DNA from: a virus
Lineage: Duplodnaviria; Heunggongvirae; Uroviricota; Caudoviricetes
Strand: one strand, 5' to 3'
IMG/VR virus record: IMGVR_UViG_2724679238_000010
DNA length: 4,510 nt
The notes under the pieces are model-generated. The model saw only the letters and a program-made list of their open reading frames with translations. It ran no database searches and had not been told where the DNA came from. A program made the position numbers and the translations under genes. Shown here piece after piece: positions 1,799-4,436 of the stretch (position 1 is the stretch's first letter; every line of letters begins with the position of its first letter).

Positions 1799-2063
1799 GA
1801 ATCAAGCTCCTGGAAAGTGGTTGTGTTAACGTTTTGGTATCTTCCAGCTCGGGCCAAATATTCATCCAATCAAAAGGCCTTAGTTGCTGACGTGTAACTT
1901 CACCATTACTGGCTCGCTCAATAAGGACACATAACGATGCCCCTAACACTTGACCTTTACTCAATGCCTTTCTTAGATAACCGATGCTAGTACCACACTC
2001 ACATGCAAACATACGCTGTTCATCTGACGAAAGAGAATTGAGAAATATTCTTAATTCTTCCAT
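1782..2063 (-). CDS. ydaS: YdaS-like Cro-type HTH transcriptional regulator
   Basis: 93-aa ORF, ATG at 2061..2063, with AAGGAG SD (rc of 2069..2074) 5 nt upstream. The segment GTSIGYLRKALSKGQVLGASLCVLIERASNGEVTRQQLRPFDW fits the YdaS/Cro-like family pattern (ERA..GEV...LRP.DW). It is the first gene of the operon divergent from the repressor and overlaps ydaT by 17 nt. Confidence 0.8.
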   Translation of the reverse strand: MEELRIFLNSLSSDEQRMFACECGTSIGYLRKALSKGQVLGASLCVLIERASNGEVTRQQLRPFDWMNIWPELEDTKTLTQPLSRSLIHDNQA

Positions 2064-2081
2064 GGCTACTCCTTAGTAAAC

Positions 2082-2172
2082 TACGGTCAAGAATACCCAC
2101 AGGTAAACAAAAGTCAATACCTATGGGTTGTTTACCTTGCGGTAATCGCATCTATTATTTACCTATGGACAA
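2082..2172. promoter_or_regulatory. divergent promoter/operator region between the cro-like gene and the repressor gene
   Basis: Three copies of a dyad motif: O1 2093..2106 ATACCCACAGGTAA; O2 2117..2130 ATACCTATGGGTTG; O3 2159..2172 TTACCTATGGACAA. O1 and O2 are 24 bp centre to centre. Leftward promoter candidate: -35 TTGACT (rc of 2112..2117), 16-bp spacer, -10 TATTCT (rc of 2090..2095). Rightward promoter candidate: -35 TTTACC 2131..2136, 16-bp spacer, -10 TATTAT 2153..2158, ending 6 nt before ATG 2165. Confidence 0.5.
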
Positions 2173-2584
2173 ATATGAATTTAGACGACAGCAACTCATC
2201 AAAATTCGTGATGAGAAATGCGATGGTAAAGCGGTTAACGTGGCCAGAAAGATCGGTCGCGAGCCTTCTTATGTATCAAGAATGTTGTACCCAGAGGGGA
2301 AAAAAGGAAAAAAACGGATCGCTGATGATATGGTGGAGATTATCGAAGAGTCCTTTGGGTTACCCCGGGGATGGATGGATGGTATCGTTTCATCATCAAC
2401 GAACACAGCCTCCAATTATGAAACAAGGGTTCTAACGCCACGACAACGTATTTTTTTAGATCTCTTAGACGAACTGCCAGAAAGTGAAACGGATAACTTA
2501 TTAAAAACTCTTGAAGAGAAAAAACAGTATTACAATATGATCTACGAAGAAATCCGTAAAAAGAAAGCACAAAACGCGTCATAA
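2165..2584 (+). CDS. racR: prophage repressor, RacR-like (possibly a leaderless transcript); alternative start at 2123
   Basis: 139 aa from ATG 2165 (MDKYEFRRQQLIKIRDEKCDGKAVNVARKIGREPSYVSRMLYPEGKKGKKRIADDMVEIIEESFGLPRGWMD...). A helix-turn-helix-like segment sits near the N-terminus. The gene is divergent from the ydaS-ydaT pair, which is the position of racR in Rac. No SD precedes either candidate ATG, and the predicted -10 lies immediately upstream of 2165. Symbol rests on synteny plus a recalled, unverified resemblance. Confidence 0.65.
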   Translation: MDKYEFRRQQLIKIRDEKCDGKAVNVARKIGREPSYVSRMLYPEGKKGKKRIADDMVEIIEESFGLPRGWMDGIVSSSTNTASNYETRVLTPRQRIFLDLLDELPESETDNLLKTLEEKKQYYNMIYEEIRKKKAQNAS

Positions 2585-2625
2585 CTCACCAAACAACCAG
2601 CCACCAGTTAAGACACCCCAAAATT

Positions 2626-2664
2626 TTACCCATAGGTATTTACTTTTTGAATACCTATGGGTAT
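2626..2664. promoter_or_regulatory. operator-like dyad pair 3' of the repressor gene (OL analogue); may also form a hairpin
   Basis: 2626..2639 TTACCCATAGGTAT and 2651..2664 ATACCTATGGGTAT, 25 bp centre to centre, the same motif as in the divergent promoter region. ACCCATAGGTAT and ATACCTATGGGT are reverse complements, giving a 12-bp stem with an 11-nt loop followed by a T-rich tract (atcctttatttc). Confidence 0.45.
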
Positions 2665-2846
2665 CCTTTATTTCATACCAACCCTCCCCGCCCCACAGAA
2701 CGCAGGGCAATACTTTGAGTTACCAGGCAGTGGTCAGGGGTTAAGTAGCCAGCCCGAGGCGTAAGAACATGACGGCAGGGTTCAACTTTAACTATGCAGC
2801 AGGTTTTTGTTCCGCTACCCCGGCGTTAAGGGGAAATGAGGTCAGC

Positions 2847-2999
2847 ATGGATACTATCGATCTTGGCAACAACGAATCTCTGGTGTGCGGCGTGTTCCCA
2901 AACCAAGACGGTACGTTCACCGCAATGACGTATACCAAAAGCAAAACGCTTAAAACCGAATCTGGCGCGCGTCGCTGGTTAGCCAGAAACACTGACTGA
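2847..2999 (+). CDS. small prophage protein, about 50 aa (YdaF/YdfA-like small protein family suspected); alternative start at 2769
   Basis: ATG at 2847 with GAGG (2837..2840) 6 nt upstream. Protein MDTIDLGNNESLVCGVFPNQDGTFTAMTYTKSKTLKTESGARRWLARNTD. Size and position next to the repressor match the small ydaF/ydfA-type genes of Rac/Qin-like prophages. Family assignment is from memory and is tentative. Confidence 0.5.
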   Translation: MDTIDLGNNESLVCGVFPNQDGTFTAMTYTKSKTLKTESGARRWLARNTD

Positions 3000-3376
3000 T
3001 GAGGCTGACGATGGAATTTAAAGATTTACCGTCTGATGTACAGAAAACAGCAGCTCATACATTGCATTCTGTGCTGCGAGAAATCGGGAAAGATATTGCA
3101 AGCGAGCCAGCAAAAGATCTGGCCCGGAAAATCAAGACCGCTTTCGTTGAGCTTTATAATGTTGGCACTGACTCTGAAACTGTCGAGACCAAGACCGTAA
3201 GTTCACCAATATTCTCACTTGAGCCAGGCGTATTATCAGGTGAAATATGCACCGAGATTTCCAGCGAACTGCTTCCGGTAATACGAGAAACAATTTGCCG
3301 TCGCGGTTTGGATGGAAGTTACGATCATGACGTCCTGCAAGTTCTCAGGACAATGGTGACTTCACTGGGGATTTGA
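2999..3376 (+). CDS. hypothetical prophage early protein (125 aa; alternative start 3011 gives 121 aa)
   Basis: ATG 2999 overlaps the TGA stop of the upstream gene by 1 nt (TGATG), suggesting translational coupling. ATG 3011 has its own GAGG SD (3001..3004) 6 nt upstream. No recognisable domain by eye. Confidence 0.55.
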   Translation: MRLTMEFKDLPSDVQKTAAHTLHSVLREIGKDIASEPAKDLARKIKTAFVELYNVGTDSETVETKTVSSPIFSLEPGVLSGEICTEISSELLPVIRETICRRGLDGSYDHDVLQVLRTMVTSLGI

Positions 3377-3545
3377 TCCCTGCGTCCTCTAACCTTTTGA
3401 TATAGCGGTCCTCCAAGAAGCGGTAAATTTTGTCGAAATCATCTTTCCCCTCTGATTTATTCAGAGGATTACAGGACCCGTAAGTAGCGGCATACATTTC
3501 AACCGTTTTATCAAAAATATAAGAGACAAATTCTTCTTTAGTCAT
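3345..3545 (-). CDS. hypothetical small protein, 66 aa, charged and soluble-looking
   Basis: ATG at 3543..3545 (rc) with AAGAAGGA SD (rc of 3553..3560) 7 nt upstream. Protein MTKEEFVSYIFDKTVEMYAATYGSCNPLNKSEGKDDFDKIYRFLEDRYIKRLEDAGIKSPVKSPLS. The track ORF extends to a GTG at 3630..3632, but that start lacks an SD. The 3' end overlaps the convergent gene 2999..3376 by 32 bp. Confidence 0.45.
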   Translation of the reverse strand: MTKEEFVSYIFDKTVEMYAATYGSCNPLNKSEGKDDFDKIYRFLEDRYIKRLEDAGIKSPVKSPLS

Positions 3546-3882
3546 ATAGATTTCCTTCTTGGTTATTCGGGATAAGAAGGATACCACCTCGCCTGACGTG
3601 GTTAAAAGCAGGCACACAACACGAAAGCGCACGGCGAAGTTCGTCTCACTGTACGGTGTCGTTAAATTTAATTCGACCGTGCGCTTCCGGTTGTGGCAAC
3701 CCGCGAAATGGCGCGGCGGTAAGTATGGCGGGGTTATTCCTTCCCCGTTGAGGACACCGGGTTGTCAGGTTGACCATACGCTTAAGTGACAACCCCGCTG
3801 CAACGCCCTATGTTATCAATTTTCTGGTGACGTTTGGCGGTATCAGTTTTACTCCGTGACTGCTCTGCCGCCCTTTTTAAAG

Positions 3883-4030
3883 TGAATTTTGTGATGCGGT
3901 GAATGCGGCTAAGCGCACGCGGAACAGTTAAAACCAAAAACAGTGTTATGGGTGGATTCTCTGTATCCGGCGTTAATTGTTAACTGGTTAACGTCACCTG
4001 GAGGCACCAGGCACCGCATCACAAAATTCA
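3883..4030. repeat. perfect 19-bp inverted repeat pair enclosing 110 bp with GTTAAC dyads
   Basis: 3883..3901 tgaattttgtgatgcggtg is the exact reverse complement of 4012..4030 caccgcatcacaaaattca. The enclosed region holds GTTAAC-TG-GTTAAC (3979..3992) within cgttaa...ttaacg (3971..3993). The right arm ends 5 nt before the SD of the 4048 gene. Confidence 0.7.
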
Positions 4031-4047
4031 TTGTTGAGGACGCGATA

Positions 4048-4236
4048 ATGGAAACGTTATTACCAAACGTTAATACGTCTGAAGGTTGTTTTGAAATTGG
4101 TGTCAGAATCAGTAACTCTGCATTTACTGAAGATGCCATTAACAAGAGAAAACACGAACGGGAGTTATTAAATAAAATATGCATTCTTTCAATGCTGGCA
4201 CGTTTACGCCCGATGCAAAAAGGATGCTGGCAATGA
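4048..4236 (+). CDS. hypothetical small protein, 62 aa
   Basis: ATG 4048 with GAGGA SD (4036..4040) 7 nt upstream. Protein METLLPNVNTSEGCFEIGVRISNSAFTEDAINKRKHERELLNKICILSMLARLRPMQKGCWQ. Its stop TGA (4234..4236) overlaps an in-frame ATG (4233..4235) of the next ORF. The track ORF starts at a GTG (3943) lying inside the inverted-repeat region, which I consider non-coding. Confidence 0.4.
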   Translation: METLLPNVNTSEGCFEIGVRISNSAFTEDAINKRKHERELLNKICILSMLARLRPMQKGCWQ

Positions 4237-4436
4237 ATACAGCAATTGCTCTCACTCTGATAGTTTTTCTTAATACGGGCGAGCCTGTTGACCCGGTTAT
4301 TGACATTTACGGTTCAATGAAAGAATGCACGGCTGCCGCAGCGGAACAGAAAACTCCCGGTAACTGTTATCCGGTCGATAAAGTTATTCATATGGACAAT
4401 AACGAAATCCCGGCAGGACTTAAAACAGCACCGTAA
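4179..4436 (+). CDS. hypothetical small protein with signal-peptide-like or membrane-anchor N-terminus (85 aa; alternative start 4233 gives 67 aa)
   Basis: ORF MHSFNAGTFTPDAKRMLAMNTAIALTLIVFLNTGEPVDPVIDIYGSMKECTAAAAEQKTPGNCYPVDKVIHMDNNEIPAGLKTAP. Basic residues (KR) precede a hydrophobic stretch (AIALTLIVFL), followed by a polar region with two Cys. Start is ambiguous: ATG 4179 has only a distant GGAG; ATG 4233 has AAAAAGG 9 nt upstream and forms an ATGA overlap with the preceding ORF. Confidence 0.45.
   Translation: MHSFNAGTFTPDAKRMLAMNTAIALTLIVFLNTGEPVDPVIDIYGSMKECTAAAAEQKTPGNCYPVDKVIHMDNNEIPAGLKTAP

Follow-up and report, generated by a model that had tools for sequence, protein, structure and literature searches.

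The segment from 2627 to 2667 of the viral sequence analyzed here is, with a probability that we put at about 0.85 on sequence grounds, a lambdoid left operator-promoter module (OL/PL), the counterpart of OL/PL in phage lambda and of dicBp in the Qin prophage of E. coli K-12. The window, by which we mean the whole 4,510-nt stretch of DNA, is the immunity and early region of a lambdoid (Qin/Rac-like) prophage and runs right to left relative to the lambda map (Table 1). The proposed module combines two exact copies of a 12-bp dyad, TACC-N4-GGTA, with candidate -35 and -10 hexamers, and it lies between an immunity repressor gene and an early-left operon of the dicBF type. Phage specialists will recognize an ordinary lambdoid feature that holds no surprise, save for a possible overlap between operator and terminator.

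Table 1. Features of the 4,510-nt window and their coordinates
Feature	Position	Strand	Remarks
DnaC-like loader fragment	3-365	minus	
O-like replication protein	372-1349	minus	with 30-nt iterons
YdaT/CII-like gene	1373-1798	minus	
Cro-like (YdaS-type) regulator	1782-2063	minus	divergent from repressor; Pfam YdaS_toxin below cut-off; phrog_35
PR	TTGACT 2117..2112; TATTCT 2095..2090	minus	overlapped by OR cluster
OR cluster, three dyads	2094-2105; 2118-2129; 2133-2144		-71/-47/-32 from repressor ATG
PRM-like promoter	TTTACC 2131-2136; TATTAT 2153-2158	plus	16-bp spacer; overlapped by OR cluster
Immunity repressor, 139 aa	2165-2584	plus	phrog_5736 'transcriptional regulator', 1e-69
Proposed OL site 1 (promoter-distal), TACCCATAGGTA	2627-2638		exact TACC-N4-GGTA; abuts -35; equivalent in 26 related loci
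Proposed OL site 2 (promoter-proximal), TACCTATGGGTA	2652-2663		exact TACC-N4-GGTA; fills spacer, overlaps -10
RNA hairpin, repressor 3' UTR	2627-2642 paired with 2648-2663; loop 2643-2647	plus	
Candidate PL/dicBp-equivalent -35, TTTACT	2639-2644	plus	aligns with TTGACT -35 of window PR
Candidate PL -10, TATCCT	2662-2667	plus	17-bp spacer
T/C-rich tail, TCCTTTATTT	2664-2673	plus	coincides with PL -10 and discriminator
Predicted transcription start CAT, A2675	2674-2676	plus	also left edge of immunity-specific segment
Untranslated leader of early-left operon	2674-2846	plus	conserved
Early-left (dicBF-type) operon	2847-4436	plus	Pfam, Rfam, E. coli homologue annotation, K-12 Qin layout
ydfA-like DUF1391	2847-2999	plus	Pfam
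ORF	3011-3376	plus	
DicF sRNA	3822-3873	plus	Rfam, 76.7 bits
dicB	4048-4236	plus	Pfam
ydfD-like DUF1482	to 4436	plus	Pfam

The gene order of the window recurs in an E. coli homologue, where it ends with exonuclease, excisionase, and integrase genes. Stretches with about 96% identity that cover at least 80% of window positions 1950 to 3000 are present in 822 of 5,426 complete E. coli genomes, and carriers of this immunity type include EPEC E2348/69 and O157:H7 strains. An Rfam E-value search of the whole window returned only DicF and a subthreshold STnc100-like match (39.1 bits against a gathering score of 47), which follows DicF and runs into the start of dicB; nothing was returned at 2600 to 2850. 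On the minus strand, a convergent ORF of 66 aa (3345-3545; phrog_34441, 2e-49) is embedded in the presumed early-left operon, and its 3' end overlaps the end of the ORF at 3011-3376. The O-like gene contains about 2.6 tandem 30-nt iterons (TCAATATTTGACGGGTCAACCGTTGAGGGG; 925-1002), presumably the replication origin. The published operator of YdaT is TTGATT-N6-AATCAA (PMC9986795), and TTGATTATCATGAATCAA (1788-1805), over the start codon of the ydaT-like gene and the end of the cro-like gene, is its one match at 0 mismatches. With up to three mismatches allowed, this operator showed no overall enrichment in the window.

The preliminary description placed two further copies of the dyad 25 bp apart (start to start) and 42 nt past the repressor stop codon (TAA, 2582-2584), and both copies proved to be exact matches. 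When at most one mismatch is allowed, TACC-N4-GGTA occurs six times in the window against 1.05 occurrences expected, a count reached in none of 200 shuffles. Five of the six matches fall into two clusters, one 5' of the repressor gene (2094, 2118, and 2133) and one 3' of it (2627 and 2652). The distance between the clusters measures 509 to 533 bp, in agreement with the roughly 500 bp proposed for operators flanking the repressor gene. Looping of the DNA between the two clusters by repressor oligomers, as between OL and OR of lambda, may take place over this distance. Together with their flanks, the downstream copies form a perfect 14-nt inverted repeat (2627-2640 and 2650-2663, with 9 nt between the arms), slightly longer than the 12 bp originally given; that the two copies are reverse complements of each other, can form a hairpin, and are followed by a T-rich tail was borne out as well. 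A search for a third OL site near 2600 to 2700 at up to one mismatch found none, and a pair is also the rule among relatives.

The upstream cluster would be organized in a corresponding way. The dyads at 2118 and 2094 would cover PR as the OL pair would cover PL, and the dyad at 2133 overlaps the -35 of the PRM-like promoter. The middle OR site recurs exactly, as a 13-mer, in site 2 and its flank, and in inverted form, at 95% over 20 nt, in site 1; the PL module of the window is identical to its own PR module, read outward, at 36 of 45 positions. The pair geometry of 24 to 25 bp at both clusters is compatible with pairwise cooperativity of the lambda type; in a structure model, the C-terminal domain of the repressor is short and helical, unlike that of lambda CI. 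Because the PRM -10 ends only 6 nt before the repressor ATG (2165), a layout also found in phage mEp043, the repressor mRNA is probably leaderless, like that of lambda cI. A fourth, degenerate dyad with two mismatches (TACCTATGGACA; 2160-2171) spans the repressor start codon, and it may be due to chance, since mEp043 has no counterpart there.

Comparison with related loci argues that these dyads belong to the repressor. A scan of species-representative genomes yielded 24 loci in other genera, among them Yersinia, Arsenophonus, Edwardsiella, Klebsiella, Brenneria, Pantoea, Leclercia, Atlantibacter, Izhakiella, and Orbus. Exact or near-exact sites lie at about -72, (-47), and -32 from the repressor start in 22 of these 24 loci, in which the N-terminal domain of the repressor is 51 to 82% identical and a downstream pair, 24 to 26 bp apart, lies 69 to 1836 nt past the repressor stop. 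The two most distant loci (29 to 38% identity) have no such sites. The same layout of upstream and downstream dyads is found in Salmonella, Serratia, and further E. coli relatives, and mEp043, whose cI N-terminal domain is 65% identical, shares both the dyad and its layout. Over 26 related loci the pair sits 46 to 1836 nt from the repressor stop, and the motif is present in these 26 loci, which share the N-terminal domain, regardless of the C-terminal domain or the downstream genes. It is absent from heteroimmune phages that carry the same downstream operon. Judged by these comparisons, the operator motif tracks the DNA-binding domain of the repressor and not the flanking genes.

The hexamers are conserved along with the pair. 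A -35-like hexamer (consensus T-T-G/T-A-C/T-N) directly follows site 1 in 27 of 27 loci, TAnnnT begins at the last two bases of site 2 in all 27, and the spacer is 17 to 18 bp long with a single exception of 16 bp. The sixth position of the -10, T6, is invariant (27/27) though it lies outside the dyad. In most loci an A-tract is present 5' of site 1, at what we infer to be the position of an UP element. The PL of the window itself is a weak match to the promoter consensus (8/12) and falls below the threshold of the promoter scan. The best consensus match at the site (9/12) lies on the minus strand, where TTCAAA-17-TAAAAT (2651..2623) would read leftward, antisense, into the 3' end of the repressor gene; relative L037 scores 8/12 for the same arrangement. 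That the pair controls such a minus-strand promoter is nevertheless improbable. Across the 27 loci, the mirrored hexamers match the consensus at a mean of 5.6/12, against 8.1/12 for the plus strand; they lack a -35 in the wider family, and T6 is present in only 16 of 27 loci. The local mirror symmetry of the operator pair accounts for the minus-strand match, which was rejected as a conserved feature because it does not extend beyond the close clade. With the motif and the hexamers conserved in 27 loci, the suggestion that the pair is an OL analogue overlapped by an early-left promoter has strong comparative support.

The proposed OL/PL module also has the location expected of an immunity boundary. 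Homology with the heteroimmune phages vB_EcoS-689R5, Evi, and Tritos begins at CATACCAACCC, at about 2674, and each of the three has its own TTGACT-type promoter and its own repeats immediately upstream, with the -35 and -10 ending just before CATACCAACCC. The intergenic region of K-12 Qin does not align upstream of this point and contains other repeats. These alignments place the module at the edge of the immunity-specific segment. In K-12 Qin, dicBp has been established by experiment as the DicA-repressed promoter of ydfABC-dicF-dicB-ydfD, and it is derepressed 22-fold in a dicA deletion (PMC10448788). As the position of the module matches that of dicBp, we regard it as the dicBp/PL equivalent of a different, uncharacterized immunity type.

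Downstream of this boundary, a leader of about 170 nt is kept across the heteroimmune phages and is mostly missing from K-12 Qin. A query with window positions 1950 to 3000, which contain the leader, matched 4,364 of 5,426 E. coli genomes, against 822 genomes with this immunity type. The fold of 2672 to 2850 is not unusually stable (z = +1.05), and the idea of a put-like element or riboregulator was set aside on that ground; the literature on the prophage sRNAs AgvB and Pas contained nothing relevant on ydfA, dicF, or the immunity region.

The 139-aa repressor was modeled (pLDDT 86) as a helix-turn-helix domain (residues 1 to 72), a low-confidence linker segment (77 to 87) that is predicted to be disordered, and a C-terminal helical hairpin (92 to 138). 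It has no S24 peptidase domain, and induction is therefore presumably independent of RecA-mediated repressor cleavage. A fold search with the model gave only marginal matches of the XRE/Rep type, the top one being SPC32H Rep (5d50; E = 1e-3, 24% identity over 82 columns). A sequence search of the PDB found no significant homologue, and Pfam assigned no family. Homologues form two groups, one of short proteins (135 to 145 aa) like that of the window and one with many phage repressors of the LexA/S24 type (220 to 242 aa) whose similarity is confined to the N-terminal ~75 residues (about 55 to 85% identity). Two A-runs (GGAAAAAAGGAAAAAAA) lie inside the repressor gene at 2296 to 2313, and in the homologues P0013 and P0019 the N-terminus is out of frame and the frame is regained at these runs, so that some E. 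coli copies of the repressor appear frameshifted and inactivated.

Taken as an OL/PL module, the element would work as follows. Repressor dimers would bind the two 12-bp dyads, 25 bp apart, and would probably do so cooperatively. Site 1 abuts the -35, and site 2 fills the 17-bp spacer and extends into the -10, so that dimers on both sites would mask the flank of the -35, the spacer, and the -10 itself. Repressor in this position would exclude RNA polymerase and silence the ydfA-dicF-dicB operon, whose early-left transcript is predicted to start near A2675. We infer binding of the repressor from the comparisons above, and the cooperativity between dimers is likewise a prediction. The Cro-like protein probably binds the same dyads, and the true ligand could be this protein or some other factor; as the immunity module is passed on as a unit, sequence comparison does not separate the candidate ligands.

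The inverted arrangement of the two sites raises the question of whether the pair also acts in RNA. The predicted hairpin has 16 pairs (5 of them G-C), a 5-nt loop, and a free energy of -22.6 kcal/mol (z = -5.1), and none of 200 shuffles was as stable. A terminator scan flags the hairpin with its tail. The U-tract of this tail (UCCUUUAUUU) is broken right after the stem (UCC...), and the tail scores -3.2, against about -5.4 (-4.3 to -5.8) for the dedicated terminators of relatives. The proposal that the pair could also act as a terminator is plausible, with evidence on both sides: the hairpin is stable and the clade has no separate terminator; the tract of U residues is weak, and close relatives have lost it. 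That the element is a terminator and nothing else, with an incidental resemblance to the upstream dyads, is very improbable. A hairpin and a T-rich tail 42 nt after a stop codon would suit such a reading, but 26 other loci have the same pair, spacing, and hexamers, at distances from the repressor stop that range from 46 to 1836 nt. In relatives the pair often follows a separate terminator and usually lacks complementary centers. We rejected this reading on account of the many relatives in which separate terminators precede the pair and the repressor gene is distant.

A different possibility is that the mirror-image pair serves both as operators and as the intrinsic terminator of the repressor (PRM) transcript, or as a hairpin that forms and stabilizes its 3' end; in lysogens it would then insulate the toxic dicBF operon from read-through. 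We treat this dual use as possible, with the odds against it. The stability of the hairpin and the scan-flagged tail favor it, as does the 42-nt gap after the repressor stop, which holds no other hairpin. By comparison, a canonical GC-rich terminator with a T-run lies between the repressor unit and OL in 11 of 27 loci, counting clear cases, and the heteroimmune 689R5 likewise has a dedicated terminator (GGTCGGTTATGCCGACCTTTTTTTT). Scanning viral contigs for the pattern produced 120 matches in 30 distinct versions, and we analyzed 22 distinct variants of the clade, among which 98.3% of hairpin cells are paired. One pair varies between G-C (11), G-U (7), and A-U (4) with no mispairs, another between U-A (16), C-G (3), and U-G (1) with two mispairs, and double compensatory switches lead from CATA/TATG to CACA/TGTG and from CATG/CATG to CACG/CGTG. 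The double-sided changes (2 pairs) and the covariation score were each reached by 1 of 500 shuffles, for sequences that are close relatives, and both this relatedness and the YRYR composition of the centers inflate the covariation signal. Because every N4 center in the clade is YRYR, full pairing with G-U counted is calculated for about 32% of random pairs; four clade variants contain mismatches, and in the wider family the N4 centers of the two sites pair about as often as expected by chance. Full pairing is only weakly associated with the lack of a separate terminator, at 5 of 6 against 8 of 21 loci (one-sided Fisher p of about 0.07, ignoring relatedness). The interrupted U-tract and weak tail score also count against a terminator, and in L037 and L038 (TCCTACATTC) and in Salmonella locus L035 (CACTAGCCAC), relatives that keep the stem, the tail is not T-rich; the composition of the tail is explained by its coincidence with the -10 and the discriminator. 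Apparent compensation could also arise from templated correction inside a short inverted repeat.

Such correction is part of another explanation, which has the inverted repeat without any function in RNA, as a by-product at the DNA level of duplication of the PR module or of templated quasi-palindrome (strand-switch) correction. We consider this plausible, at somewhat less than even odds. Short inverted repeats in E. coli are known to undergo templated mutation. Some complementarity is present between two quasi-palindromic operators in any case: the palindromic arms TACC/GGTA are sufficient for a hairpin in every relative, with energies between -6 and -17 kcal/mol. The close match of both sites to the middle OR site, and of the PL to the PR module, fits duplication as well. 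Against a purely DNA-level origin, the variant most frequent in the clade (73 of 120 viral contigs) has a position that would be a G-T mismatch in DNA and a G-U pair in RNA, and three loop-proximal pairs vary solely by A-to-G changes opposite U, a pattern more typical of constraint on RNA. Overall, a genuine function of the hairpin at the transcript end is a tentative proposition that we would sooner doubt than accept. The narrower scenario, in which the E. coli/Salmonella prophage clade co-opted the OL pair as a terminator or 3'-end hairpin of the repressor mRNA and thereby replaced the dedicated terminator of its relatives, is somewhat unlikely. If it were true, a single 37-bp element would signal the end of a transcript in RNA besides serving in DNA as operator pair and promoter, a repressor roadblock and the hairpin terminator could jointly insulate the dicBF operon from PRM read-through, and regulation of such compact design would be of modest general interest.

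Returning to the OL/PL module, the analysis defines the operator TACC-N4-GGTA and the layout of OL/PL, OR/PR, and PRM for an uncharacterized immunity type. It predicts the promoter that controls the DicF sRNA and the cell-division inhibitor DicB in the carrier strains, many of them pathogenic E. coli, and it helps to annotate a repressor that databases now label a "hypothetical protein".

Among known systems, lambda OL/PL offers an architectural parallel. In both, one dyad is repeated on either side of the repressor gene, a promoter on the same strand as the repressor gene, directed away from it, is overlapped by two sites spaced about 24 to 25 bp, and the module marks the edge of the immunity region; the OR side adds a third site across the -35 of PRM, and the mRNA of the repressor appears to be leaderless. 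In lambda, OR1-OR2 and OL1-OL2 have this same spacing, and the cI mRNA is leaderless. The differences are that lambda OL has three sites where the window has two, that the lambda operator is 17 bp long where the window has the 12-bp TACC-N4-GGTA, and that the window repressor has no S24, RecA-cleavable domain. In the window, OL is only about 0.5 kb from OR, no separate timm-like terminator is present, and a dicBF-type operon takes the downstream place of N and nutL.

The Qin prophage of K-12 shares with the window the order repressor, promoter, ydfA ... dicF-dicB-ydfD and an adjacent short, noncleavable repressor, with dicBp repressed by DicA (PMC10448788). By contrast, DicA and its operator are unrelated to those of the window, Qin has no TACC-N4-GGTA sites, its Cro/CII partner is DicC where the window has YdaS/YdaT-like proteins, and most of the 170-nt leader is missing. 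SPC32H Rep, of the antirepressor-controlled Gifsy type, is likewise a small helix-turn-helix repressor without a peptidase domain, but the similarity is marginal and no antirepressor was identified in the window.

A relative by sequence is phage mEp043, for whose operators we found no description in the literature. Besides the related DNA-binding domain, it has the same dyad, the OR triplet at -72/-47/-32, a 25-bp OL pair, a -35 after site 1, and a -10 over the end of site 2. We read the sequence after its pair (GCTCTTAAAAATTAA GCCCTGAAGAAGGGC) as a putative lambda-type nutL boxA/boxB, followed by N; the pair precedes nutL-N and so occupies a bona fide, canonical OL/PL position. Between their dedicated terminator and the OL pair, mEp043 (L039, at about 4040 to 4085) and L015, L017, L021, and L023 have an extra palindrome (TTACCTGAAAATTCAAGCAGGTAA), with more widely spaced TACC ... 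GGTA half-sites, that the window lacks. mEp043 differs from the window in its 228-aa cI, in the separate GC-rich terminator and extra palindrome that precede OL, in the nutL-N that follows it, and in the OL centers TATA/TGTA, which pair only if G-U is counted (2 Watson-Crick and 2 G-U pairs). By sequence, the module of the window belongs with the mEp043-type immunity group.
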